Shown in pieces: positions 3,425 to 58,880 of a DNA stretch of 64,000 bases; position 1 is the stretch's first letter, and the number at the start of each line of letters is the position of its first letter. Location: NCBI GenBank assembly GCA_023657465.1, contig JAGTJX010000004.1, positions 154,904 to 218,903 on the forward strand. Direction: 5' to 3'. Under the pieces are notes generated by a model. That model had not been told where the DNA came from, searched no databases, and saw only the letters and a list, made by a program, of their open reading frames with translations. This DNA is from Lysobacteraceae bacterium (GTDB taxonomy: Bacteria; Bdellovibrionota; UBA1018; JAGTJX01). Made by a program: the position numbers and the translations under genes.

Positions 3425-3473
3425 TAGCCATCCTCGCAGTGATTCGCGGCGGTGTTGGCACTCAAATTGCTGA

Positions 3474-4259
3474 GTGGAGTTCCATATGTGGAATCACAAT
3501 GTGCTCCGAACGTCTCATGGTTTGTCTTTGTTCAGTGACCCTCTCATCGCTGAGGAGAGCTGGAGGTTTCTATCAGAACCGAGAGGCGACATAGCATCAC
3601 TTATCTTGATGCCGAATCACACTCATCTCATTTCGAAGTCGATTGATGCGCAGGATCTATTGTTATCGCTTCGTCAAAGAATCAATCGGAAATTTGGTTT
3701 TGGAGTCCGAAATTGGGACGGAATCACCAAATCCGAGACCATTGCAGATGTTGTGAAACTACGGAGGAGCATTCGCTATGTACATTTGAATCCCGCAAGG
3801 GCGGGTTTGACTCGTGATCCTCTCTTATGGCGATGGTCTACACATAGAGATTGGCTGGGTTATGTATCTCAACCTATTGTTTCGGCTGATGCGATTCATG
3901 CTATGGGTTTTTTAAAGACCAGGGAGAAGTTTCATCATTACGTGAGCGCTGACCCTTCGGTGGATGTTGCTGGAACGCTATTGCCAAAAGCTCCAGAAGT
4001 TTTAGCGCTAAGCCTAGATAGGTTAAAGTCTGTGCTACAAACTTATTATCGATGTTCTTTAGTAGAGTTGGCGGAACCGAGGCATCCTCTCAAAGCGAAA
4101 GCCGTTCCTCTTGTAATCCAGACATTAGAATTAAAGGAAGAAATAGCTGCGAAACTATTTCAGGTCTCTACTAGACAAATTAGAAACCTATCGCACTTAC
4201 CGGTATCAGAAATAATCAAGCAGCGGTTCAAAGAAATGGTTGGAGACCTTAGGTTTTAA
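3474..4259 (+). CDS. IS200/IS605-like HuH (Y1) tyrosine transposase-domain protein (RAYT-like) fused to a C-terminal DnaA-domain-IV-like HTH
   Basis: HuH motif LILMPNHTHLI and catalytic-Tyr motif YVHLNPARAGL match REP-associated tyrosine transposases. The C-terminal ~100 aa carry an HTH (VSTRQIRNLSH). No terminal inverted repeats were recognised, so it is probably domesticated. Confidence 0.7.
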   Translation: MEFHMWNHNVLRTSHGLSLFSDPLIAEESWRFLSEPRGDIASLILMPNHTHLISKSIDAQDLLLSLRQRINRKFGFGVRNWDGITKSETIADVVKLRRSIRYVHLNPARAGLTRDPLLWRWSTHRDWLGYVSQPIVSADAIHAMGFLKTREKFHHYVSADPSVDVAGTLLPKAPEVLALSLDRLKSVLQTYYRCSLVELAEPRHPLKAKAVPLVIQTLELKEEIAAKLFQVSTRQIRNLSHLPVSEIIKQRFKEMVGDLRF

Positions 4260-8842: not shown

Positions 8843-10711
8843 ATGTGTGGAGTGGTTGGATATGTGGGTCGCAGACCCGTTCTTGATATTCTTGTTAAGG
8901 GACTTAAGCGCCTCGAATACCGAGGATATGATTCCGCCGGAGTGGCTTACTTCGATAGCGACAAGCTCAAAGTAGAGAAGAGCGAAGGTAAACTCGTCAA
9001 TGTAGAGAAGCTACTCGCAGGAATTGCACCCAAGGGTCTTCAGCTTGGGATCGGTCACACCCGTTGGGCTACTCACGGCAAACCCACCACTCAGAATGCT
9101 CATCCTCACCGCACAGGTCACGTCGTTCTCGTTCATAACGGGATCATCGAAAACTATTTGGAAATCAAAGCAGACCTGAAGAAAAAAGGTTACGAGCCCG
9201 CATCAGAAACCGATAGCGAGCTGTTTGGATTCTTGGTTTTAGATAAAATGAAATCAGGCAAGAAACTCGTGGAATCTGTACGCGAGAGCTTCAAGCTCCT
9301 TCATGGATTCTGCAGTGTCGTCGTGATGTCGGAGCAAGAGCCAGGGAAGTTCGTCGCAGTTCGTAACGGCACCCCGCTTGTCGCAGCAGTGGATCCACAA
9401 GGTGGAGCGTTCTTAGCATCTGATGCTCAAGCGCTACTTGAGTACACTAAGGAAATGATTTTCTTAGAGGATGGAGATGTTCTCGTCGGTGATGAGAGCG
9501 GCATTCATATCAGCACGCTTGCTTCTACTAAGGATGCGGGCAGAAAAGCAGTGACTCTGAATTGGTCAGCTGACAAAATGGACAAGCAAGGCTTCGAGCA
9601 CTACATGCTTAAAGAAATCATGGAACAACCCATGACGATGGTCGATACTCTGAACAGTCTCCTCGATCGCGCTCGCACAGATCCGTTTCCACTCGCAGAG
9701 CAACCCGGAGTAGAAGTCCTGAGATCAGCGAAGGAATTCATTCTCGCTGCATGTGGAACATCATGGCATGCAAGCTTACTCGGTAAATATTGGTTGGAGC
9801 GCTGGGGCGGAGTACCTGCGAATATCGAGTACTCTAGCGAACTCAGGTATCGCGATCCTGTGTTGAGAGCGGGAGCTGTACTCATCGGAACTTCTCAATC
9901 GGGAGAGACCGCGGATACTCTTGCCATCATAAAAGAGATGCGTAAGCGCGGAGTGCCTACGGTCTCTATCACTAACGTTCGAGGAAGTACCATTTCTCGT
10001 GAGTCGAATTACGGATTCTTCACTTCAGCAGGACCTGAGTTCAGTGTCGCTGCGACGAAGTCATTCCTGGCTCAAGCGCTCGTGTTCTTCCTCTGGGCAG
10101 GACATTTGGGATTACGAAGATCTAAGGATATCGCAAGCCAAGTCCAAGTCATCTTCGATCAACTGATCAAGCTTCCTCATCTTCTTGAGAGTATGTTGAA
10201 GCCAGATGGCGTGATGGTGCGAGCTTGTGAAGAAGCCGCTAAAAAATTCCAAAACGCTAAAGGTTTCTTCTTCATCGGTCGTGGATATTCTTTCCCGATC
10301 GCTCTTGAGGGTGCATTGAAACTCAAAGAAGTCGCCTACGTGCACTCAGAAGGTTATGCAGCTGGAGAGTTGAAACATGGACCGATTGCGATGATCGATA
10401 AGGAAATGGTGACGATCGTCCTCGTTCCTCAGGATTCTCTCTATGAGAAGACAGTCTCTAATCTCCAAGAACTCAAAGCTCGAGGATCCAAGATCATCGG
10501 TATTGGTAATGCGGGCGATGAGAAAGTGAAGAAGGATTGCGATGTTTGGATTCCAATCCCTGTAAAGAGTGCAGATAAGGACTTCGATGAGTCACTCTAT
10601 CCGTTCTTGCTTGTGCCTGCTGTGCAGCTTTTCAGTTATTACATGGCAAAACTAAAAGGCACTGACGTCGATCAGCCACGCAACTTGGCTAAGAGCGTGA
10701 CTGTCGAATGA
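8843..10711 (+). CDS. glmS: Glutamine--fructose-6-phosphate aminotransferase
   Basis: N-terminal MCGVVGYVG (Ntn Cys2) followed by two SIS domains. The start was moved to the ATG at 8843. Confidence 0.95.
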   Translation: MCGVVGYVGRRPVLDILVKGLKRLEYRGYDSAGVAYFDSDKLKVEKSEGKLVNVEKLLAGIAPKGLQLGIGHTRWATHGKPTTQNAHPHRTGHVVLVHNGIIENYLEIKADLKKKGYEPASETDSELFGFLVLDKMKSGKKLVESVRESFKLLHGFCSVVVMSEQEPGKFVAVRNGTPLVAAVDPQGGAFLASDAQALLEYTKEMIFLEDGDVLVGDESGIHISTLASTKDAGRKAVTLNWSADKMDKQGFEHYMLKEIMEQPMTMVDTLNSLLDRARTDPFPLAEQPGVEVLRSAKEFILAACGTSWHASLLGKYWLERWGGVPANIEYSSELRYRDPVLRAGAVLIGTSQSGETADTLAIIKEMRKRGVPTVSITNVRGSTISRESNYGFFTSAGPEFSVAATKSFLAQALVFFLWAGHLGLRRSKDIASQVQVIFDQLIKLPHLLESMLKPDGVMVRACEEAAKKFQNAKGFFFIGRGYSFPIALEGALKLKEVAYVHSEGYAAGELKHGPIAMIDKEMVTIVLVPQDSLYEKTVSNLQELKARGSKIIGIGNAGDEKVKKDCDVWIPIPVKSADKDFDESLYPFLLVPAVQLFSYYMAKLKGTDVDQPRNLAKSVTVE

Positions 10712-17054: not shown

Positions 17055-17549
17055 ATGAAGACACTGAATGCAAAACTACTAGAGCAGTTTTTAAACCTAG
17101 TCATTAAAAAGCTTGAAGGTGAGTGGGTGCTACTAGGTGGCACTCTTATTCCCGCATTAGGGATCGAATATAGACAGACAGTCGATATTGATTTTGTACC
17201 TGCAGGAGAGATGACCAATAAAACATCATTGGAACTCATGGGCTTGGCAGAGAAGCTGGGAATTGCCGTTGAGTCGATCAATGCATCGGCGGGATTCTTC
17301 TTAAAGAAGATTCCAGATTTCTCTGAGCGTTTAGTCAGCCTGAAGAAGTCCAAGAGTTGCACAATCTACCGACCTACTTTGGATCTCTACCTTGAATTGA
17401 AACTCAATCGCGCTTCTCCCACGGATCTCACGGACTGCATACAATTAATCCAATATTGTAAGAAAATGAAACTAGCTGAAGAGTTAAAGTCTGGGAGCAA
17501 GTTTTTAGAGAAAAAAGACCGTAGAGATATTTTGAGATACTTTGGATAA
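17055..17549 (+). CDS. Minimal nucleotidyltransferase-fold protein (AbiEii/MenT-like motif)
   Basis: Motif LLGGTLIPALGIEYRQTVDIDFV fits the NTase signature hGG-x14-[DE]hDh. It is translationally coupled to the upstream XRE gene. Confidence 0.5.
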   Translation: MKTLNAKLLEQFLNLVIKKLEGEWVLLGGTLIPALGIEYRQTVDIDFVPAGEMTNKTSLELMGLAEKLGIAVESINASAGFFLKKIPDFSERLVSLKKSKSCTIYRPTLDLYLELKLNRASPTDLTDCIQLIQYCKKMKLAEELKSGSKFLEKKDRRDILRYFG

Positions 17550-17550
17550 T

Positions 17551-17646
17551 CCCTACCGGATTAAATGGACAATACTGAATAGAGTGATGGCAGCGTAGTA
17601 GTGAGTGTTCTTTCATAGAAATGTAAGTCCGTCTCTGACGGTTTTT
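17551..17646 (+). repeat. Intergenic repeat family copy R1 (core plus hairpin), ending in a Rho-independent terminator
   Basis: Core TACCGGATTAAATGGA at 17554-17569, then ...GTTCTTTCATAGAAATGTAAG, then CCGTC-tct-GACGG at 17629-17641 followed by TTTTT. It starts 2 nt after the NTase stop. Confidence 0.8.
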
Positions 17647-18566: not shown

Positions 18567-18738
18567 CAATACCAATACTCCCAATAAGCGGTTTAGTAAG
18601 TTTGGCGTCTTTTAAAACCCAGTCTACCGGATTAAATGGAAAATACTTCATAGAGGTTGGGTGGTTGAATTTGGAGCGTTAATCCATAGAAATGGAAGCG
18701 CCCGAAAGTTATTTACCTTCAGGCGTTCGTGATTTTTT
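18567..18738 (+). repeat. Intergenic repeat family copy R2 (5' module plus core plus hairpin)
   Basis: CCAATACTCCCAATAAGCGGTTTAGTAAGTTTGGCG is followed by the core TACCGGATTAAATGGA at 18625-18640, then GGGTGG..GGAGCGTT..TCCATAGAAATGGAAGCGCCCGAAAGT, ending GATTTTTT. Confidence 0.8.
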
Positions 18739-20535: not shown

Positions 20536-20627
20536 TTACAGGAAATAACGTTCCAAACTTTGAAGCTGGTTTCTATTAAAGAATTGCCAATATTCCCATT
20601 AAGCTTTTTAGTTGATTTGGCGCTCAA
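20536..20627 (+). repeat. Intergenic repeat family copy R3 (5' module only)
   Basis: AAATAACGTTCCAAACTTTGAAGCTGGTTTCTATTAAAGAATTGCCAATATTCCCATTAAGCTTTTTAGTTGATTTGGCG is near-identical to 58812-58875 and related to segments of R2 and R5. It starts 5 nt after the brnA stop. Confidence 0.7.
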
Positions 20628-28689: not shown

Positions 28690-29700
28690 ATGCTAGAGAA
28701 AAATCAATACGTTGCGACTCTTACAGACAAATCCCAAGTTGAATCCATTTTCCTCGTAAAATACTCCTCACTTCAAACCGGCAAAACAGGCAAAGCTTAT
28801 TTGAATCTTGTCCTCATGGATAAGACAGGTGAGCTAGAGGCACGCGTCTGGGATGATGTTCCTCAAGTCGCCTCGATGGCAGTGCGCGATGCGTTCGTCT
28901 GGGTTGAAGGCTCTTGTCAGAACTTCCAAGGTCGCAAACAAATCGTGGTCAAAAAACTTCAAGGACTTCGTGAAGACCAAGTCAAAATCAAAGATTACCT
29001 CAAAGTCGGAGAGTTCGACTCTGAAGAACAATACAAGGAATTAGTCGCATTCGTTCACTCGATGAAGGATCCTTATTATAAGGCTCTCGCTGAATCGATT
29101 CTCATTGATGACGAAGAGATCGTCGCACTCATGAAGAAGGCGCCAGCTGCAAAAACCATTCATCATGCATACCGAGGCGGACTATTGGAGCACGTAGTTG
29201 CGATCACGAAAACTCTCGATTTCCTCTCTGAACTCTACAGCCCTTTTGTGGATCGCGATCTTTTGTTCTTAGGCGGCTTCCTCCATGATCTAGCCAAAAT
29301 TTGGGAACTCAGCTTCGAGCGATCCACTGACTATACTGATGCAGGCAAACTCCTCGGACACTTGGTGATGGGCATCGAACTTGTTGAGAAAAAAGTCATT
29401 GCACTCGATAGCACTTCAGGTAAACTTTCAGGAAAGTTCCCAGAGGAGAAGAAGTTACTCGTCAAGCATATGATCGCATCCCATCACGGTTCTTATGCAT
29501 TTGGATCTCCGAAAGAACCTCAGTGTCTAGAAGCTTTCATTGTTCATGCGATTGATGATCTCGACTCGAAGATCAATTCTATCAGAAAATTTATTGAAGC
29601 AGATACGAATCCAGGAAAATGGACCCTGCTACACAAAGGAATGGAAAGATTTTTCTATAAACCGGAGTGGGCAAGACAGGCGACGGAGCTCAATACATGA
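28690..29700 (+). CDS. yhaM: YhaM-like 3'-5' exoribonuclease (OB-fold plus HD domain)
   Basis: An N-terminal OB fold followed by HD-domain residues (HHAYRGGLLEHV, FLHDLAK, HH). The start was moved to the ATG at 28690. Confidence 0.75.
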   Translation: MLEKNQYVATLTDKSQVESIFLVKYSSLQTGKTGKAYLNLVLMDKTGELEARVWDDVPQVASMAVRDAFVWVEGSCQNFQGRKQIVVKKLQGLREDQVKIKDYLKVGEFDSEEQYKELVAFVHSMKDPYYKALAESILIDDEEIVALMKKAPAAKTIHHAYRGGLLEHVVAITKTLDFLSELYSPFVDRDLLFLGGFLHDLAKIWELSFERSTDYTDAGKLLGHLVMGIELVEKKVIALDSTSGKLSGKFPEEKKLLVKHMIASHHGSYAFGSPKEPQCLEAFIVHAIDDLDSKINSIRKFIEADTNPGKWTLLHKGMERFFYKPEWARQATELNT

Positions 29701-37814: not shown

Positions 37815-37863
37815 TTGACATTAACGTCCATAACGTTAATAATGATAACGTTATGGACGTTAA
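37815..37863 (+). promoter_or_regulatory. Promoter plus perfect 18-bp-arm inverted repeat enclosing the start codon of the COG1373 ATPase gene
   Basis: TTGACA at 37815-37820, about 16 bp, then TAATAAT at 37837-37843. The repeat TTAACGTCCATAACGTTA (37821-37838), spacer ataatga, then TAACGTTATGGACGTTAA (37846-37863) places the ATG at 37853 inside arm 2. Confidence 0.5.
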
Positions 37864-39229
37864 TGAAAGAAACCGTAAATTAGCTGCAGGAGAGATCAAT
37901 CGAGATGATCTTTGGCCTAAGGTTGAGGAATGGAGAAACCAACCCCTAAATTTTAAATTCAATTTTGGACTAGATCAGCTGCCCGAGGAGCCTGGGATGA
38001 TCTTTGTTCGTGGCCCTAGACAGTACGGCAAAAGTACATGGCTGGAATTAGCATTACTCGATACAGTCGAAGACTTCGGTAAGGGGTCAGGATATTTTCT
38101 CAATGGAGATGAGCTCATTGATGCAAATGATTTAGAAAAAAACATATTAGAAGTCTCAACTGCATTTAGTAAAAAAGCAAAAGTTAAAAGACTTTTTATA
38201 GATGAAATTACATCAATTATTGGATGGGAAAAGGTCTTAAAAAAAATCGTTGATCGTGGTGAACTAAAAGATGTTCTTTTTGTAACGACGGGTTCAAACG
38301 CAGCAGACTTACGACGAGGAGTCGAGCGTTTGCCGGGACGCAAAGGTAAGCTCAATCGTACCGATTATATTTTTACAGGGATTTCTTATAAAGATTTTTA
38401 TTCACAGTGTTCTAAAACATTCGAAGACAAGACATGGATAGCCTATCTCCTCACGGGTGGTTCACCTATTGCAGCAAAAGAAATTTGGCAGTTCGAGCAC
38501 ATCCCCGATTACTTTTATGAAATTAATCGTGATTGGGTATTAGGTGAACTAGCGAAGAGTGGAAGATCGAGATCCTATGTCCTGTCAGTATTGAAAACAA
38601 TTCTCAATAAAGGAATATCGCGAATAGGGTATCTCGGACTAGCAAAAGAATCAGGGTTGGCTAACAACACATTGGCGGCGGAATATGTTGAGCAATTATC
38701 TGATCTGCTTTGTATTACTGCGTCTCATCAGTGGGATGCTGATAAAGAAGTCACCTTACAGAGAAAACCGTGCAAGTTTCATCCCATTAATTTGTCAATG
38801 GCGCTTTCGTTTTACCCGAATAGACTCAACAGTGTTCATGAATTTGAACAGATATCTGATCAAGAGAAAGCAAAATGGCTAGAGTGGCTCGTAGCTCAAG
38901 AACTCTTTCGTAGGCAGTGCATTCTAGGTCAAAAAATTCCAGATAACCTGCATTATTGGAGCTCAAAGGAACATGAGATTGATTTTGTTTCAAGTCGAGG
39001 AGATTTGTTTGAAGTGAAGTTGGGGCAGTCGAATCCTTTGGAGTTTGCTTGGTTTTCAAAAGTATTTCCTAAGAAGAAATTATTGGTCATCAATAAGAAA
39101 GAATTTGAAACGAGTCATGTCAAAGGAATTACTATAGAGCAATTCTTATTGAGTGACGGATTTCCGCATCCTTACCCAGGAGAGGTAGATGATCCAAATA
39201 TTTATAACGACTACTCTCGTTTTAACTAG
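37853..39229 (+). CDS. COG1373-family AAA+ ATPase (AAA_14 plus DUF4143)
   Basis: Walker A VRGPRQYGKSTWL, Walker B LFIDEIT and a DUF4143-like C-terminus. The gene looks AT-rich by eye relative to gpsA and hpt. Confidence 0.75.
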   Translation: MDVNERNRKLAAGEINRDDLWPKVEEWRNQPLNFKFNFGLDQLPEEPGMIFVRGPRQYGKSTWLELALLDTVEDFGKGSGYFLNGDELIDANDLEKNILEVSTAFSKKAKVKRLFIDEITSIIGWEKVLKKIVDRGELKDVLFVTTGSNAADLRRGVERLPGRKGKLNRTDYIFTGISYKDFYSQCSKTFEDKTWIAYLLTGGSPIAAKEIWQFEHIPDYFYEINRDWVLGELAKSGRSRSYVLSVLKTILNKGISRIGYLGLAKESGLANNTLAAEYVEQLSDLLCITASHQWDADKEVTLQRKPCKFHPINLSMALSFYPNRLNSVHEFEQISDQEKAKWLEWLVAQELFRRQCILGQKIPDNLHYWSSKEHEIDFVSSRGDLFEVKLGQSNPLEFAWFSKVFPKKKLLVINKKEFETSHVKGITIEQFLLSDGFPHPYPGEVDDPNIYNDYSRFN

Positions 39230-39799: not shown

Positions 39800-40335
39800 T
39801 TCGGATACTTAAGATAATGAATGTCTTTGAGGTTACGGAATTTCTCTTCGAGATCTAATCCGTAGCCGACTAAGAATGGATCTTCAACGACGCGGCCTAC
39901 GTACTTCACAGGCACATCAGTTGCGACGCGTTTTTTAGACTTATCAAGCAGAGTGCAGACCTCAACGGATTCTGGCTCTGCTTTTTTTAATCTCTCATAG
40001 AGAAACTCAAGTGAACGGCCGCTATCAATGATTTCTTCAATGATGAGCACGTGCTTACCGCGAAGATCACTCTGGATGTCCTTCAAGAATGCGACAGTGC
40101 CTGAAGACGCACGAGACTTCTTCCCGTAACTCGTCATTCTGACGAATTCAATTTCTGGATCCATTTCGAGTTTGCGAATGAGATCCGCTGCGAAAATAAT
40201 CGTTCCCTTAAGGACTGCGACGAGAAGTAAGTTTTTGCCTTTATAATCTTTGTTGATTCTGTCTGCGAGAGACTGCACAAGAACTTCGATCTCGTGGTTG
40301 CTTAAGTACTTAGAAAAGTTGCGTTCATCAAGCAT
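39796..40335 (-). CDS. hpt: Hypoxanthine phosphoribosyltransferase
   Basis: PRPP-binding motif VLIIEEIIDSGRSL. Confidence 0.9.
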   Translation of the reverse strand: MLDERNFSKYLSNHEIEVLVQSLADRINKDYKGKNLLLVAVLKGTIIFAADLIRKLEMDPEIEFVRMTSYGKKSRASSGTVAFLKDIQSDLRGKHVLIIEEIIDSGRSLEFLYERLKKAEPESVEVCTLLDKSKKRVATDVPVKYVGRVVEDPFLVGYGLDLEEKFRNLKDIHYLKYPN

Positions 40336-50024: not shown

Positions 50025-51218
50025 ATGAGTATATGGGTACAGAAATACGGCGGTACCTCTGTCGGAACCCCTGAGCGCATCAAGCAAGTCGCAAAACGAA
50101 TCGCGAAAACTCACGAGTCAGGCAAGAAACTCGTCGTCGTTGTTTCCGCTATGGGATGCACAACTGATGACCTACTCAAGCTAGCAGCTGATATATCGAG
50201 CAAACCCGAACCCAGAGAAATCGACATGCTCCTCACCGCAGGTGAGCGTATCTCAATGGCACTCCTCTCGATGGCACTTGAAGATTTGGGTGTGCATGCA
50301 ATCTCGCTTACAGGATCTCAAAGTGGAATCATCACTGACGGAAGTCATAGGCGGGCTAAGATTAAAAAAATTCTAGGCGACCGAGTTCGCTCTTCCTTGG
50401 ATCAAGGAAAGGTCGTCATCGTAGCTGGATTCCAAGGTGTGAGTGAGGCGAAGGAGATTACGACTCTCGGTCGCGGTGGATCTGATACGACCGCTGTAGC
50501 ACTTGCTGCGGCTCTCGGAGCCGAGCAATGTGAGATCTACACAGATGTAGACGGAGTTTACTCTACAGACCCTAACCTCATTGCGAGTGCGAAGTTTTAT
50601 ACAAACGTGAGTTACGACTTCATGATCGAAATGTCGATGCGAGGAGCAGGAGTATTGCACCCGAGATGCGTGGGACTTGCTAAGAAGTACAAAGTTCCAG
50701 TCTCAGTGATTAATAGCTTAAAAGAAAATAGGGAGAAGAAAACCGTGATTACAGAAAACATGGAAGACGTAGGGATTGCAGGAGTCACTGGGGATGATGA
50801 GCAAGTATTAGTGCACATTGAGCTTGCGAGACCGACTGTTTTCTCAGCGCTCTTTGATTCGATGAAAGATTCAAATCTCCAGGCGCTGTCTCCAATTTAT
50901 TTTGGGAAGAATGTTTTGTTCTTCACGAATCAAGAGGGCATCCCTGTGCTGAAGAAAATTGTGTCTAAACTGCAGGCCGATGGCTTCATAGATTCAATCA
51001 AGATTCAGGATGAAATCGTACCTGTTTCTATTGTGAGTAATACAGTGGCACAGGGCGGCGAAATGGTGAGTAAAATCCTCAGTCTTCTTGCTGAAAACCA
51101 TATTCCTGTTACAGTATCTATGACTTCGCCATTATCGCTTTGTGTAGGTGTACAACGCACAAAAATGAAGGACGCATTGGAGATATTGCATGCAGAAATC
51201 AATGATCGTAGTCGGTGA
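50025..51218 (+). CDS. lysC: Aspartate kinase
   Basis: KYGGTSV N-terminus, an amino-acid kinase fold and C-terminal ACT domains. Confidence 0.9.
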
Positions 51219-52323
51219 CGGTTTTTCAGCTCTCACCTCAGTTCTTCTTTCTTTAGAGAACATCGAGACTTGTTCAAATGTGGTTTGGATTTCAGGTACA
51301 GGTTCTAGGCTTGTTCCTCCAACTAATTCTATTGATATGGGCAAGGGCGCACTCATGCTTGAGAAGCTCATGCAGATCTACGGTATGGACTCAGAAGGTC
51401 TCATCCGTGGGAAGTTCTTAAGAGAGTTTAGAAACAAGTCCTTCCGTGAACCTGTGTGGAATGCAGCTCCAACTCCTGACTTCAAGCGCGAGTCGCTTCT
51501 GGAGTGGGTATCAGATGGAGAGATGCATCTCGTGTCCCTCTTCGAAGTGAAGTTCAATGAGTCGCTTTTAGAAGTGTTTGAGGCATTACGATCAATTGCT
51601 TTGAAACATGATCGCGTGAAGCGCTATGAAGGATTCCCAGTTAAAAAAATTGAAAATGCTCACGGACAGTACGCTGTCACTCTTGCAAACGGTGAGACTG
51701 TTTATGGAGAGTCGATGATCTATGCAGATCGACTTTCAAGCTTAAGAGATATTGAGACTGCGATGGTGATTCAAGTCGATGGTAAGAAGTTAAAGCCACT
51801 TGAGCTAGAGAGAAAATGTGATGCGAGATCTGTACTTCAGATCGAGATTGAGCACAAGACTCCGATTGGTTCGAAAGTGAACGAGCACTTCTTCACCGCT
51901 CTTCACCATGAATCTGACGATACATACAATCATCAGGTTTGGGGTTACTTCACTGAAGATGGTAAGCGCAGTATCTGGAGTGTGGTTCTTGCTCCAGGAG
52001 ATGCAGATGATAATCATCAAATAAGCAAGCGCTTGCGCAGAATGAAGCAAGCTCTTAATAAAACCTTTTCTGAAGGCTGGCTACCAGAAGGCGTGCAGAC
52101 GTTCACGGACATCATCTCAAAAGAGAACGTTCGCATGGAAGATGCCATTTTGTTTTCAAAAGTAGAACCTTTTGATTCTCCACTCATGATTGAGTGTGAG
52201 GCTGGTAAGATTCCTCTCTTCACTGATGGTTTCGGAATGAGTTTTGCGATTCAATCAGCGGCGGAGACTGTGCTAGGGAATCTCCTCGCAGCCAATACCA
52301 ACGGCGTAATCAGTTTAGGATGA
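51190..52323 (+). CDS. Hypothetical protein with an N-terminal Rossmann-like GxGxxA motif
   Basis: [14 protein letters not shown] dinucleotide-binding-like start. It overlaps the lysC end by 29 nt. Family unknown. Confidence 0.4.
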
Positions 52324-52920: not shown

Positions 52921-53451
52921 ATGAATGCCGCTTTTAAAACTACAGGACTGAAATTCAGACTCATACTGAGCATTCTCTTTTTGTTTCCAGCGACCTCACA
53001 AGCCATCGACATTAATTGGCTCCACTTCAGAGGTGCTGGAGTGCTCATGTTACAAAACGGCGGGAACCTTGTCACAGGATCCTTGTCTTGGAATCCGCTC
53101 ATCTCAATTCAGTCCTTAGATACTTCAATCAGAGATTTGTTTGGTATCAGGCTTCATGCCGGAGCCATGGGAATCAAAAACCCATCAAATGAATACTCGT
53201 TTGCACTAGACTACCAAGCGCTCTGGGCAACTCGGTTTGAGACGATGTCCTTCGAAATTGGCCCTGGGGTTCAGAACTTCGTCGCCCAAGGGGGCTCGCG
53301 TATGACCGTAAATTCGAACTTGGACATGGATTTTGGGTTCTCAAGAGGTATCATGAGGGCATTAAGGCAGCTCGTGATCGGATATTCTGCTGTCATCGAC
53401 AATACGTACTTCACACATCAAGTCAGATTAGGTATTGGCATTCAACTGTGA
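52921..53451 (+). CDS. Secreted hypothetical protein, possibly a small beta-barrel outer membrane protein
   Basis: Signal peptide ...FPATSQA and alternating hydrophobic beta-strand-like segments. Confidence 0.4.
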   Translation: MNAAFKTTGLKFRLILSILFLFPATSQAIDINWLHFRGAGVLMLQNGGNLVTGSLSWNPLISIQSLDTSIRDLFGIRLHAGAMGIKNPSNEYSFALDYQALWATRFETMSFEIGPGVQNFVAQGGSRMTVNSNLDMDFGFSRGIMRALRQLVIGYSAVIDNTYFTHQVRLGIGIQL

Positions 53452-55256
53452 TCTTAATCAATGCCCACGAGCTTCGTAAATCTTTCACCGCTAGACCTCT
53501 GTTTAATGGTCTGACCTTCACCATTGAATCTAAAGACCGTATTGGTCTCATTGGGCCAAATGGCGCGGGCAAGTCCACACTCATGAAGATCCTCATCGGT
53601 AAAGAGCAACCTGACTCAGGCACGCTCTCGATCAGATCGGGTACTAAGATTGCATACCTAGAACAGAAACCTACGCTCGACCAAGACACAACTGTGTATG
53701 CGACTCTCATGGAAGGCTCGCACGACGCTTACGACTGGCAGGAGATGTCGAGAGCTGACGCTCTGATCTCTAGGCTGGGACTTGATGGCGACGCTGTCGT
53801 GGGCAATCTCTCAGGCGGTTGGCAGAAGCGCGTGGCGCTGGGGCGTGAGCTCATGAAGCAGCCTGATCTACTCCTACTCGATGAGCCTACCAACCATCTC
53901 GATGTCGAGAGCATCATGTGGCTTGAAGATTTCTTAGAGCAATCTTCATTTGCAGTACTCACGATCACGCACGATCGTTTGTTCTTAAACCGCGTATCGA
54001 ATCGAATCATGGAACTCGATCGCAGGAACCCGGGCGGCATTCTCTGTGTCGAGGGAGATTACACGAAGTACTTGGAAGCCAAAGAAGAGCGCATCCACAA
54101 TCAAACCGAACGCGAAGTGAGATTGAAGAACGTTTTAAGACGCGAGACCGAGTGGTTGAGACGTGGAGCTAAGGCTCGTACGACGAAGCAACAAGCGCGA
54201 ATTCAACGTCATGGTGAACTCTCCAGTGAAGTGAATGAACTCAGTGATCGTAACAAAACCCAAAAAGTCAGAATGGACTTTGGCGCTGCTGAGAAGAACC
54301 CAAAGCGACTCATTGAAGCTTTGAAAGTTTCTAAGTCGTATGATGGCAATCTCGTCGTTCCAGAGCTCACACTCTTACTCACTCCACACAGCAGACTAGG
54401 ACTTCTCGGTCGAAACGGATCGGGTAAGTCGACGCTGATTAAACTGTTATTAGGCAGGGAGACTCCAGATCAGGGTGTTGTGAAACATGCCGACGCTCTC
54501 CAAGTTGCTTATTTCGAGCAGAATCGCGAAAGTCTAGATCCTAAGAAAACACTTCTTAAGACTTTATGCCCAACAGGTGACTACGTAGACTTCCAAGGCC
54601 GTCCTGTGCACATCAAGGGTTACCTCGATCGATTCAAATTCACTCCTGAACAAATGGACATGGAAGTAGGCAAGCTTTCAGGCGGTGAACAGGCAAGAAT
54701 TCTCATTGCGAAGCTCATGCTCCGTCCTGCAAACGTTCTTGTTCTTGATGAACCAACTAACGACCTCGATATGGAGACGCTCGATGTCCTTCAGGATGTC
54801 TTGGCTGAATTCAATGGCTCCGTCATTCTGGTTTCTCACGACAGGTTTTTCTTAGATTCTGTTTCTACCGACATCATTGCTATCGGCCCTGGAGAAAGTG
54901 GCGATAAGGAAATCCTGACGTTCAAGGGAGTTCTTCAGTGGGAAGAGTGGAAGCGTTCTGTTGGGATCAAAGAAACTAAGAAGAAGAACGTGAATCAAAA
55001 CTTAGACAAAGTCACAACAGCTCCTGGTAAGAAGAAAAAACTCTCGTTTACTGAACAGCATGAGTTCGACAAGATGGATGCAACCATTAAAGCAGCAGAA
55101 AAGAAATTAGAAGACATCGTGACGGAAAGTCACTCTCCCGAAGCAGCCGGATACTCAGTGAAGAAGCTCCAAGAGATCAGCGCTCAGATTGCACTCGCTC
55201 AGAAGGAAGTCGACCGACTCTATGCGAGATGGGAAGAACTCGAAGCGAAGAAGTAG
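53448..55256 (+). CDS. uup: ABC-F family ATPase (Uup-like, two ABC domains plus C-terminal coiled-coil)
   Basis: Two Walker A motifs (GPNGAGKST, GRNGSGKST) and two LSGG signatures without TM domains, plus a lysine-rich coiled-coil tail. The GTG start overlaps the previous stop. Confidence 0.9.
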   Translation: MILINAHELRKSFTARPLFNGLTFTIESKDRIGLIGPNGAGKSTLMKILIGKEQPDSGTLSIRSGTKIAYLEQKPTLDQDTTVYATLMEGSHDAYDWQEMSRADALISRLGLDGDAVVGNLSGGWQKRVALGRELMKQPDLLLLDEPTNHLDVESIMWLEDFLEQSSFAVLTITHDRLFLNRVSNRIMELDRRNPGGILCVEGDYTKYLEAKEERIHNQTEREVRLKNVLRRETEWLRRGAKARTTKQQARIQRHGELSSEVNELSDRNKTQKVRMDFGAAEKNPKRLIEALKVSKSYDGNLVVPELTLLLTPHSRLGLLGRNGSGKSTLIKLLLGRETPDQGVVKHADALQVAYFEQNRESLDPKKTLLKTLCPTGDYVDFQGRPVHIKGYLDRFKFTPEQMDMEVGKLSGGEQARILIAKLMLRPANVLVLDEPTNDLDMETLDVLQDVLAEFNGSVILVSHDRFFLDSVSTDIIAIGPGESGDKEILTFKGVLQWEEWKRSVGIKETKKKNVNQNLDKVTTAPGKKKKLSFTEQHEFDKMDATIKAAEKKLEDIVTESHSPEAAGYSVKKLQEISAQIALAQKEVDRLYARWEELEAKK

Positions 55257-55432
55257 CACAGCTTTTTTTAGTCCAGACTTTGGACGTGAAGTCTGATCTT
55301 CGAACAGAAATTAATCCATATTCAATAAAACATAGTTTAGCTCGGCATAGTTTTTGTACTTAGGAGTGCAGCCAAACTGAGCAGAGTGAGTGTGAAGAGA
55401 GAGTGGCATTGCCATTTTATTTGAGCACTTTG

Positions 55433-55456
55433 GCTCCTTTCCAAAAGAAAGGAGGT
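55433..55456 (+). promoter_or_regulatory. SD-sequestering hairpin in the 5' UTR of the small ORF
   Basis: CTCCTTTC (55434-55441), loop caaaa, then GAAAGGAG (55447-55454). This perfect 8-bp stem places the whole AAGGAGG Shine-Dalgarno in the 3' arm. Confidence 0.6.
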
Positions 55457-55460
55457 CTTT

Positions 55461-55595
55461 ATGGATGATAACGAGTTTGCCAACCGTTATTATACGTATC
55501 GTACGCAGTTAGAGAAACTTAAGCAGAAAACATGGCTCCTGATCGTCATAGCCCGCTTTCTGTTGTTTCTCATTGCACTTGCTCATCGTTTTTAG
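55461..55595 (+). CDS. Small membrane peptide (44 aa), candidate type I toxin-like ORF
   Basis: ATG at 55461 with SD AAAGGAGG 7 nt upstream. MDDNEFANRYYTYRTQLEKLKQKTWLLIVIARFLLFLIALAHRF has a polar N-terminus and a C-terminal TM helix. It is absent from the ORF track because it falls under the length cutoff. Confidence 0.45.
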   Translation: MDDNEFANRYYTYRTQLEKLKQKTWLLIVIARFLLFLIALAHRF

Positions 55596-55709
55596 GTGAG
55601 CCACTATAAATGACGATAGTGACGAGGCCTAGGGATACAGCGTAAACCTGGAGCTTTCATGATGAGGTCTGCTTGGTTTGGTCCAACTAAACATTAATTC
55701 CTGCAGCCC

Positions 55710-55800
55710 ATAGTACCTGATTAAATGGAATTTCTATCTGGAAGAAGAGTGGGCGGAGTTGGGAGCGTTCTTTCATAGAAATGAAAACGCCCGAAAGTGA
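55710..55800 (+). repeat. Intergenic repeat family copy R4 (core plus hairpin)
   Basis: Core TACCTGATTAAATGGA at 55714-55729, then GGGCGG..GGAGCGTTCTTTCATAGAAATGAAAACGCCCGAAAGT. It is about 75-80% identical to R2 over ~95 nt. Confidence 0.8.
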
Positions 55801-55828
55801 ATTATGTAATCAGAGCAATGTAGTGCTC

Positions 55829-56764
55829 TTATTCATCATTTCGTCCTACTGAGTGAAAAGCAGACCCTGGCGCAAAAATTGCTAACCACCTGAGCCAGGC
55901 CGCTAAACCTGTTCCTTGGAATAGCCCTTCTGCCTCTCCTACTGTTGCAAGCGGAGTGAGGTTATCACCTGAAGTGATCAATGCTTTCAACGCAATGTCC
56001 GCATTGTATTCCGCTGTACTTAATGATTTCTGTGATTCAGAGCCAAACGCGGCTCCTTGTGCAGCTAGAGCGAGGTCTAGACGAATTTTGTTATTTTCAT
56101 CTCCAAAAGCATCAACTATGAAAGCCCGTTTTGGGTCTCTTCCTATTGTAGTGGATTTAAACTGATAGCCCAATTGCGAAAGCCATGCAGCTAATGCTGA
56201 TGATGTCTTTCTTGCATGAAAAGCAGTCATCCAAAAGTGGTAGGGCTTAGAGTTATCAAAGCTGATCTTCACATTTTTAGGAATTGAGTAAAGCTGCTGA
56301 AATCGTATTTGAGCGCTAGCATCGAGAACAGAAACACCTAATGCAAGAATTTGAAAAAAGATGCCTGTATATTTTCTTGTGTCTTTAAATGAAGATGAAA
56401 AACCGCGGAGTCTAAGGTTGATATTAGGGCCTCCAGTTGAGAGAATAGCTAACGCTTCCCAAGAGTATTGATATGCCTCATCGTCTGTAGCGCCTGCTTT
56501 CTTCATATTACTTTGCATATCTAAGAAAAAATCCGAGCTTCTAGTCAATGAACCAGTTTTAATTTTTTCGAAGATCTCAAGAGTCATCAGGCGAATTCCT
56601 TCAATCATGACAGGGTTTTGGTACATCCCTATGATTTCATTTAACAGAGTGATTGGAGGCTGAGAGGTTGGAGACATATCATTCAATATTTTTTGTAATG
56701 CCCTTTTACAGGACTCGATTTTAAGAAGAGACCCATGAAGAGTGCAGAGGCCATAGAGGTGCAA
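55829..56764 (-). CDS. Hypothetical protein
   Basis: 311-aa ORF, probably co-transcribed with the upstream secreted protein. Unknown family. Confidence 0.45.
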   Translation of the reverse strand: MHLYGLCTLHGSLLKIESCKRALQKILNDMSPTSQPPITLLNEIIGMYQNPVMIEGIRLMTLEIFEKIKTGSLTRSSDFFLDMQSNMKKAGATDDEAYQYSWEALAILSTGGPNINLRLRGFSSSFKDTRKYTGIFFQILALGVSVLDASAQIRFQQLYSIPKNVKISFDNSKPYHFWMTAFHARKTSSALAAWLSQLGYQFKSTTIGRDPKRAFIVDAFGDENNKIRLDLALAAQGAAFGSESQKSLSTAEYNADIALKALITSGDNLTPLATVGEAEGLFQGTGLAAWLRWLAIFAPGSAFHSVGRNDE

Positions 56765-57424: not shown

Positions 57425-57580
57425 ACCGGAAATATTTGCTAATATTTTCATTAAGCGTTTTAGTTGATCTGGCGGTTTTTGAAATCGAGTCTACCTGATT
57501 AAATGGACACTCTATAATAGAGGAGGAGTGTCTTTTAGTGAACGATACTTCATAGGAATTTGAGGGACTTAATGCCAATT
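57425..57580 (+). repeat. Intergenic repeat family copy R5 (5' module plus core plus degenerate hairpin)
   Basis: TTGCTAATATTTTCATTAAGCGTTTTAGTTGATCTGGCG is followed by the core TACCTGATTAAATGGA at 57492-57507, then ..ATAGAGGAGGAGTG..CTTCATAGGAATTTGAGGG. Confidence 0.75.
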
Positions 57581-58809: not shown

Positions 58810-58880
58810 CTAAATAACGTTCCAAATTTTGAGACCGTTTTCTATTAAGGATTTGCCAATATTTACAGTAACTTAGAAGA
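58810..58880 (+). repeat. Intergenic repeat family copy R6 (5' module only)
   Basis: AAATAACGTTCCAAATTTTGAGACCGTTTTCTATTAAGGATTTGCCAATATTTACAGTAACTTAGAAG is near-identical to R3 at 20543-20610. Confidence 0.7.

Follow-up and report, generated by a model that had tools for sequence, protein, structure and literature searches.

The locus and its peptide family

The window, by which we mean the whole 64,000-nucleotide stretch of DNA that was analysed, carries on its plus strand a 44-codon open reading frame (ORF) that begins with the ATG at 55461 and ends with the TAG at 55593–55595. The ORF lies in a 572-bp intergenic gap (55257–55828) whose flanking genes are convergent, and its Shine–Dalgarno (SD) sequence is part of a perfect 8-bp hairpin (CTCCTTTC, loop caaaa, GAAAGGAG) with a local folding energy of −10.8 kcal/mol. 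Comparison with homologous loci places both within a longer conserved unit. The features of this unit and of its neighbours are as follows.

53448–55256, plus strand: gene for an ABC-F ATPase, the left neighbour of the gap
55342–55685, plus strand: the whole conserved unit as matched by nhmmer; family conservation ends at the 3′ strand of the closing helix
55344–55357, plus strand: sigma-54-type promoter-like motif GGCAT-N5-TTGT (−24 GG, −12 GT), from alignment A2
55371–55387, plus strand: 5′ strand of the closing helix, GCCAAACTGAGCAGAGT, paired with 55666–55682 in the MFE fold
55388–55430, plus strand: lineage-specific hairpin inserted in the 5′ UTR, missing from most members
55434–55441, plus strand: anti-SD arm CTCCTTTC, the 5′ strand of the SD hairpin (helix 4, 92% paired family-wide)
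55447–55455, plus strand: SD arm GAAAGGAGG (family consensus AGAAAGGAGGUGAUCC), of which 55447–55454 is the hairpin strand GAAAGGAG
55461–55595, plus strand: the 44-codon ORF, with the 44-aa product MDDNEFANRYYTYRTQLEKLKQKTWLLIVIARFLLFLIALAHRF
55505–55576, plus strand: helices within the ORF, 55505–55537 pairing with 55550–55576 (RNAalifold, pair counts)
55581–55621, plus strand: two short hairpins 3′ of the stop codon, from the fold of the window RNA; the second is CACTAT/ATAGTG
55624–55667, plus strand: conserved 3′ UTR, in which the small hairpin CUUUCAUGAUGAGG comes after a hairpin whose loop, GGGUACAGC, is near-invariant
55666–55682, plus strand: 3′ strand of the closing helix (..TCTGCTTGGTTTGGT), paired with 55371–55387 (MFE fold, pair counts)
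55829–56764, minus strand: a 311-aa ORFan, the right neighbour of the gap

The preliminary description of this DNA had placed the same 44 codons in an intergenic region of about 570 bp, with the SD in the 3′ arm of a perfect 8-bp hairpin and a second hairpin, CACTAT-N8-ATAGTG, after the stop. All of this is present in the sequence, the first hairpin at 55434–55454 and the second at 55602–55621, where CACTAT (55602–55607) and ATAGTG (55616–55621) are separated by 8 nt. The spacing of the SD had to be corrected: it was given as 7 nt upstream of the start codon, but the GGAGG ends at 55455 and leaves only 5 nt to the ATG. The SD had also been called the best in the window, which holds in that AAAGGAGG is unique, but AAGGAGG occurs three times and AAGGAGGT twice. 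A scan of the window for a terminator-type consensus returned 2 sites against 1.4 expected, and it scored the SD hairpin as terminator-like; as this frequency is no higher than expected, the window alone could not exclude chance. The SD hairpin is not a chance product, since the same combination of hairpin, ORF and surrounding RNA is found, with compensatory changes, at 14 independent loci.

A word-indexed protein search with the 44-aa peptide gave no matches, and no protein on record is identical to it or to either neighbouring protein; the family was detected only by an index-free HMMER search. Run in full against 1.84 billion representatives, this search found 15 homologues of 38–53 aa (E = 1.5e-8 to 1e-3) that are 50–69% identical to the peptide, and one further protein of 131 aa with an upstream extension. 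In-frame upstream extensions of the family ORF are only sporadic. A profile search raised the family to at least 143 predicted proteins of 38–76 aa, mostly 40–49 aa and all labelled hypothetical, the named sources being Bdellovibrionota bacterium FG-1 (two different loci), FG-2 and one Oligoflexia bacterium. No relatives of the family were found in Pfam, NCBIfam, PADLOC, PHROG or PDB. A degenerate DNA pattern gave 26 matches in a metagenome scan, about 11 of them true family members or remnants, and zero matches in viral contigs. By homology, the ORF is a member of an unannotated small-gene family that is widespread in Bdellovibrionota.

The family logo, built from 125 members, reads M-(K/N)-N-N-x-R-Y-Y-S-Y-R-I-R-L-E-K-L-K-Q-K-T-W-x-L-V-V-L-A-R-L-L-L-F-L-A-x-L-V-x-x-Y-L-R. 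Within the motif RxxLEKLKQKTW the residues R, E, K, L and K are each kept in at least 124 of the 125 members, and an Arg or Lys interrupts the middle of the hydrophobic stretch in 123. The N-terminal part is basic (net charge +5.4). In the window peptide, residues 25–40 form a hydrophobic stretch with a central Arg in the helix; AlphaFold2 models residues 3–43 as a single continuous helix (pLDDT 86). The predicted 44-aa product is in this respect like the peptides of type I toxins, being shorter than 60 aa, hydrophobic and membrane-directed.

Coding potential was analysed in 15 loci with DNA sequence. The ATG is invariant and stands at a fixed distance from the SD, all indels within the ORF are multiples of three, and frame 1 is the only frame open in all 15 loci, frames 2 and 3 carrying stops in nearly every member. 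Pairwise differences at codon positions 1, 2 and 3 are 0.39, 0.30 and 0.49, and pN/pS, taken without saturation correction, is 0.55 overall and 0.26 in the RxxLEKLKQKT motif; ORF length is held at 38–50 aa in nearly all of the 125 sequences. Constraint at the RNA level or from a promoter was considered for the invariant GAAAAACTTAAGC and rejected: its constraint acts on the protein, since synonymous variation there (pS 0.55) is as high as elsewhere. By these comparative measures the ORF is a real, conserved coding gene, which supports the earlier proposal of a small peptide with a C-terminal hydrophobic helix.

The neighbours of the unit are unrelated among 14 loci and include, for example, a histidine kinase with yraN, gcvT, eut genes and lolA. 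One copy (L044) lies 1.1 kb from an integrase–excisionase pair, another (L060) about 200 nt downstream of a tRNA-Lys gene, and one genome holds two diverged copies. Decayed copies occur as well. Compared with its close relative L052, L053 (2305–2472) has lost the segment that starts at the Trp codon and extends to where the 3′ UTR ends. L054 (58–217) retains the unit as far as the middle of the ORF, promoter and 5′ UTR included, after which comes unrelated sequence with a strong hairpin. In L076 (about 2770–2925) the promoter and the start of the unit appear twice, flanking a run of N; this doubling is most likely a scaffolding artefact rather than a tandem duplication. Because neighbours differ from locus to locus, one genome has two copies and decayed copies exist, the unit is, as judged from these loci, autonomous and sometimes lost.

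The ABC-F protein of the window is at most 61% identical to proteins from Bacteriovoracaceae, Bdellovibrionales and Pseudobdellovibrionaceae MAGs, so the window stems from a deep-branching lineage of Bdellovibrionota. The unit is absent from 17 related ABC-F loci, nhmmer searches included. As tblastn of the peptide against 40 ABC-F loci and the window gave chance matches only, synteny and a paralogue within the window are both absent; nhmmer likewise finds a single copy there. The idea that the intergenic gap contains a decayed paralogue of genes near 17–20 kb was rejected, as only short intergenic repeats are shared.

RNA architecture, promoter-like motif and predicted SD masking

The loci of alignment A2 were gathered by exact-protein look-ups and one metagenome pattern scan, and they align from about 30 nt 5′ of the RNA to just past the 3′ helix and nowhere beyond. 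A structure of 55 pairs can be drawn on this alignment, in which 87.2% of the cells are paired, against 37–54% in slid controls, and 28 of the 55 pairs have changes on both sides, against 7–15 in the same controls. None of 500 shuffles matched any observed pairing measure, and RNAalifold recovered the closing helix, the SD hairpin, the helices within the ORF and those of the 3′ UTR. The structure is assigned to the plus strand because G–U pairs are frequent. Folded on its own, the window RNA (55369–55690) reaches −120.2 kcal/mol (z = −6.3) and forms the helices of the family structure. For an mRNA structure, this covariation support is unusually clean.

The outermost element is a closing helix of 14–16 bp (family consensus GCCAAACYGGGCAG paired with CUGCCYGGKUUGGY) that joins the 5′ and 3′ ends of the RNA, a long-distance end pairing of the kind seen in hok/sok and aapA messages. 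Its two parts, helices 1 and 2, are 90–92% paired family-wide with double changes in 10 of 15 pairs, and L044 carries a compensatory 2-bp insertion on both strands. Within the ORF, helices 5–7 are 82–96% paired, with double changes in 10 of 16 pairs; in the 3′ UTR, helices 8–10 are 71–93% paired, with double changes in 5 of 11. The SD hairpin of L043 is the compensatory variant CCCCCGU/ACGGGGG. A short upstream GUAG/CUAC helix, a rival of the lower stem of the SD hairpin, is 93% paired with double changes at 2 pairs, modest support for a possible switch element.

Several parts of the RNA vary between lineages. At the point of the 5′ UTR where the window copy has its inserted hairpin, L042 and L052 have hairpins unrelated to it, and the hairpins after the stop codon are specific to a subfamily, since the same stretch is still coding in most members. 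In L079 (2876–3245) a 30-nt insert with an extra hairpin sits in the loop of the SD hairpin, and the 3′ UTR is poorly conserved; L077 likewise has an extra hairpin inside this loop, so the loop tolerates insertions. Searches of the whole window against Rfam gave nothing at gathering score, with only chance-level matches (E ≥ 1) for 55150–55950, and scans for tRNA and tmRNA gave no matches.

A −24/−12-type motif lies a constant 12–14 nt 5′ of the first paired base of the RNA. A GG at −24 and a GC at −12, 10 nt apart, are the form of a sigma-54 promoter, and the family consensus, yGGCAy-N5-TTGC, agrees with this form in its GG/GC spacing and in the roughly 12 nt to the putative start. The GG is present in 11–12 of 13 sequences and the TGC in 12–13 of 14. 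The window copy, GGCATAGTTTTTGT, has a T at −12 where the family has C. As a control for the motif from the same lineage, GGCACGCCGATTGC precedes flagellar rod genes in L071. Inspection by eye revealed no conserved upstream activator site near the motif. From the motif and the limits of the conserved structure, we infer that the unit is sigma-54 dependent and where its transcript would begin and end. In the window as a whole, GGCAY-N5-TTGY has 5 matches against 1.4 expected. The four further matches (3457–3470, 9368–9381, 29371–29384 and 39911–39924) are possible additional sigma-54 promoters, and the first of them, GGCACTCAAATTGC at 3457, stands directly before an ORF starting at 3474.

The preliminary description had also proposed that the SD is sequestered, and predicted folds and compensatory changes bear this out as a conserved, covarying feature of 14 loci. 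The SD is predicted to be unpaired with a probability of 0.12 in the window copy and of no more than 0.05 in each of the remaining 13 members. In silico removal of the 3′ strand of the closing helix or of the entire 3′ UTR leaves all 14 members with a paired SD. Without the 5′ arm, the unpaired probability of the SD climbs to 0.07–0.69, and of the truncations folded this alone frees it. Because deletion from the 5′ arm and not from the 3′ end opens the SD, the SD hairpin is predicted to be an autonomous lock that forms during transcription, and the closing helix is more likely to confer stability on the RNA than to control the SD.

The lock has a further property. The family consensus of the anti-SD arm, GGAUCUACCUCCUUU, is a near copy of the canonical 3′ tail of 16S rRNA, for which the sequence GGAUCACCUCCUUUCU was assumed for these genomes. 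Against this assumed tail, the SD arm of most members is a complement of 13–16 nt, and for 8 of 14 members the predicted pairing covers all 16 positions. The arm matches the canonical tail better than hairpin formation demands, and the 5′ arm has a bulge and variants. Across members, the SD hairpin has an energy of −10 to −24 kcal/mol and the duplex of the SD arm with the assumed tail one of −16 to −30 kcal/mol; in the eight full-complement members, the tail duplex reaches −27 to −30 kcal/mol against −16 to −24 kcal/mol for the hairpin, again with the assumed tail. The window copy is the weakest member: its stem has 8 bp, its −12 element reads TTGT, and its SD arm complements the tail over only about 11 nt. 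Like L042, it lacks the long 16S-tail extension. A near-complete complement of the 16S tail that is masked by a mimic of that tail is an extreme and experimentally tractable form of SD sequestration.

Interpretation and comparison with known systems

Taken together, the data point with high probability to a real, conserved and translationally locked small gene, and this much is common to the first three readings considered below, those centred on a toxin, on a benign peptide and on the RNA itself. The reading that we favour, with a probability of about 50%, is a toxin-like one in which the locus would produce a default-off, locked mRNA for a tail-anchored membrane peptide. We read the unit as type I-like because its peptide is small and membrane-directed, its SD is predicted to be masked as transcription proceeds, its RNA ends pair, and its locus is autonomous and sometimes decays.

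We hypothesize that the unit would work as follows. A sigma-54-type promoter would stay silent until an activator ATPase fires and would then yield an mRNA of about 315 nt, whose first and last 15 nt or so would pair together. On its emergence, the SD would be captured by the upstream copy of the 16S tail, so that ribosomes could start neither on the nascent nor on the full-length RNA, and the outcome would be a stable, translationally silent store of mRNA. Translation would begin only once the 5′ arm had been cleaved away, had bound some other molecule or had given way to a 30S subunit; in most members the duplex of the SD arm with the 30S tail could be longer than that with the cis arm. The site of action of the peptide would be the inner membrane: its basic N-terminus would face the cytoplasm, its hydrophobic helix would carry a buried Arg/Lys, and it would probably work as an oligomer. 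Both the route of SD activation and the membrane activity or toxicity of the peptide are what we infer from these features.

Several type I systems offer parallels. In the mRNA of hok, which belongs to enterobacterial plasmids and chromosomes, fold-back inhibition through paired ends keeps the message for a membrane peptide of about 50 aa stable and inert, and the loci are autonomous and can be multi-copy. The unit is predicted to share with hok/sok the paired mRNA ends and the small membrane peptide, along with an autonomous locus. There are also differences. The membrane helix is N-terminal in Hok, which ends in a periplasmic tail, whereas the peptide here is predicted to be tail-anchored, and no Sok-like RNA was found; unlike in hok and aapA1, moreover, 3′ trimming fails to free the SD in silico (14 of 14 members). 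For tisB/istR-1, dinQ/agrB and zorO/orzO, the primary transcript is inactive and a change at its 5′ end is needed for ribosome access, and transcription of tisB and dinQ is under tight LexA control. A 5′-end change is likewise predicted to open the SD here. The antitoxins of those three systems, however, are divergent trans-acting sRNAs encoded beside the toxin, whereas the unit has no conserved flank, and the peptides are unrelated.

A published parallel is provided by the aapA mRNAs of Helicobacter. In the aapA1 and aapA3 mRNAs, folding of the message and anti-SD hairpins block translation (PMC5416894, PMC6733600). As in aapA1/IsoA1 and aapA3/IsoA3, the fold of the full-length small-peptide mRNA is predicted to block translation here, local anti-SD hairpins are predicted to catch the SD during transcription, and the family is recognisable from mRNA structure rather than from peptide sequence. 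Unlike aapA, which is activated by 3′ processing, the unit keeps its SD paired after 3′ truncation in silico. IsoA is a clear antisense RNA with its own promoter, and no such RNA was found here. There is no sequence similarity, and neither the promoter type nor the 16-nt complement of 16S rRNA is described for aapA.

An antitoxin RNA was sought across 14 members through promoters, terminators and flanks, and none was identified. When sigma-70-type promoters were mapped onto the family alignment in an antisense scan, a minus-strand site recurred in 8 of 14 members, consisting of TATAAT (55494–55489 in the window) and a weak −35 element, TTCTCT, 16 nt upstream; this TATAAT arises from the Tyr-Tyr codons of the ORF. 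The aligned loci show no reverse-strand terminator and no conserved flank beyond the unit. Of the earlier comparison with type I toxins, the masked SD, the small hydrophobic peptide and, in addition, a 5′–3′ helix are supported, and an antitoxin RNA is the part that was not identified in these loci. The likeness to hok, tisB, ibs and fst, which the preliminary description had named as examples, does not extend to sequence, in which no relation was found; for Hok/Gef in particular there is no Pfam or NCBIfam match and no conserved mok-like overlapping frame.

The near-invariant polar motif and the phylum-wide conservation are less typical of type I toxins. Together, the motif and the spread across classes of the phylum suggest a peptide that has a specific partner and is inherited vertically rather than a selfish one that damages membranes, and they fit a benign regulatory peptide about as well as a toxin. 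It is a substantial possibility, if short of an even chance, that the same locked, sigma-54-controlled mRNA encodes a benign regulatory or structural small membrane protein, such as a modulator of a transporter, kinase or motor, with no role in a toxin–antitoxin pair. This would agree with the near-invariance of RxxLEKLKQKTW and of the mid-helix Arg/Lys among 125 members, the motif pN/pS of 0.26, a family that spans Bdellovibrionota and Oligoflexia, the negative antitoxin search, and a type of promoter whose dependence on an activator suits a regulated physiological role. MgtS, AcrZ, MgrB and PspG, the last of which is transcribed from a sigma-54 promoter, are likewise single-helix proteins of 30–50 aa with a conserved motif. 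Those proteins, however, are usually encoded beside or within the operon that they serve, whereas the unit has no conserved neighbouring gene that might encode a partner, and its integrase- or tRNA-adjacent loci, truncated copies and two diverged copies in one genome also speak against a benign peptide. To our knowledge, no elaborate SD-locking mRNA fold is described for proteins of the MgtS, AcrZ, MgrB and PspG type, and we know of no benign small membrane protein reported to need two layers of mRNA locking.

A bolder version of the mechanism can be put forward only tentatively, and we consider it unlikely as a whole. It would have a sigma-54-driven, end-paired mRNA use a full 13–16-nt complement of the 16S tail as its ribosome-binding site, shut by a cis copy of the tail, so that peptide synthesis is gated by competition between the ribosome's tail and its mimic; the unit would then act as a cis-locked switch that needs no antitoxin, or would sense how available ribosomes are. 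A module of sigma-54 promoter, paired ends and tail-mimic lock would, if true, be previously undescribed.

It is improbable that the RNA itself is the main actor, the complement of the 16S tail and the cis copy of the tail sensing or titrating 30S subunits with a free anti-SD, with the peptide secondary in a dual-function RNA. The SD arm AGAAAGGAGGUGAUCC does fit the canonical tail beyond what the hairpin needs (16 of 16 positions in 8 of 14 members, with the assumed tail), and the RNA is strongly structured throughout, with GGGUACAGC as a near-invariant unpaired loop; yet purifying selection on the peptide is clear, the long extension is missing from the window copy and from L042, and the 16S tail of these organisms is an assumed one. 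Still further down in probability, a non-coding structured RNA with a fortuitous ORF is very hard to reconcile with the invariant ATG at a fixed distance from the SD, with an ORF of 38–50 aa in nearly all of 125 sequences, and with indels in multiples of three, a most variable third codon position and closed alternative frames, even though nucleotide conservation and helices run through the ORF and the lack of an Rfam match leaves room for a new class of RNA. That the hairpin matches by chance or serves to terminate the ABC-F gene, and that the ORF is random, can for practical purposes be dismissed despite the hairpin's terminator-like score, as it lies 178 nt past the ABC-F stop, directly after which there is a separate predicted hairpin, and the unit is present at 14 loci with no adjoining ABC-F gene and absent from 17 ABC-F loci of relatives; this refutes the terminator explanation that the preliminary description had itself raised against a toxin-like gene.

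Whichever function the peptide has, the analysis defines an unannotated gene-plus-RNA family. It comprises at least 143 protein clusters, has an entry in neither Pfam nor Rfam, and occurs in a phylum known for predatory bacteria. A literature search that combined Bdellovibrio with type I toxin–antitoxin systems, sigma-54 or small proteins returned nothing relevant, and in it we found no type I toxin system or comparable small-protein switch in Bdellovibrionota. If the peptide is toxic, as the favoured toxin-like reading would have it, type I systems would reach a new phylum and gain a new class of promoter, possibly without an RNA antitoxin. If it is not, it would be a conserved small membrane protein under exceptional translational control and worth functional study.

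Repeats and other features of the window

A repeat of about 100 nt, R4, occurs in four plus-strand copies, one of them in the gap with the small gene (17545–17638, 18612–18710, 55701–55799 and 57479–57575). Its core is CTACCkGATTAAATGGA...GGAGCGTT..TTCATAGAAATG.AAGCGCCCGAAAGT; the copies are intergenic, and three of the four lie directly downstream of minus-strand genes. R4 was considered as a part of the unit or as its antitoxin and rejected in both roles, as it is absent from all other loci fetched and RNAalifold gives no consensus structure on either strand. A second dispersed intergenic repeat, AAATAACGTTCCAAA.TTTGA...TTTCTATTAA.GA.TTGCCAATATT, is found at 20543–20622, 58812–58871 and 57430–57474 in copies that are 83–84% identical. 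It is fused to a copy of R4 at 57430–57523, an arrangement suggestive of mosaic repeats.

To the right of the small gene, the segment 55829–58483 has a G+C content of 0.34–0.41, against 0.45–0.50 to the left, and contains three ORFs (311, 164 and 199 aa) with no Pfam match; it may be an acquired island with its edge at the small gene. Further to the left, a 377-aa ORF (51190–52323) has a Pfam RdRP match below cut-off (E = 0.0026; 17 bits against 23.8) that is probably spurious. Finally, a perfect 20-bp inverted repeat, CATTAACGTCCATAACGTTA and TAACGTTATGGACGTTAATG with a 7-nt spacer, sits in a short gap between two plus-strand ORFs at 37819–37865.
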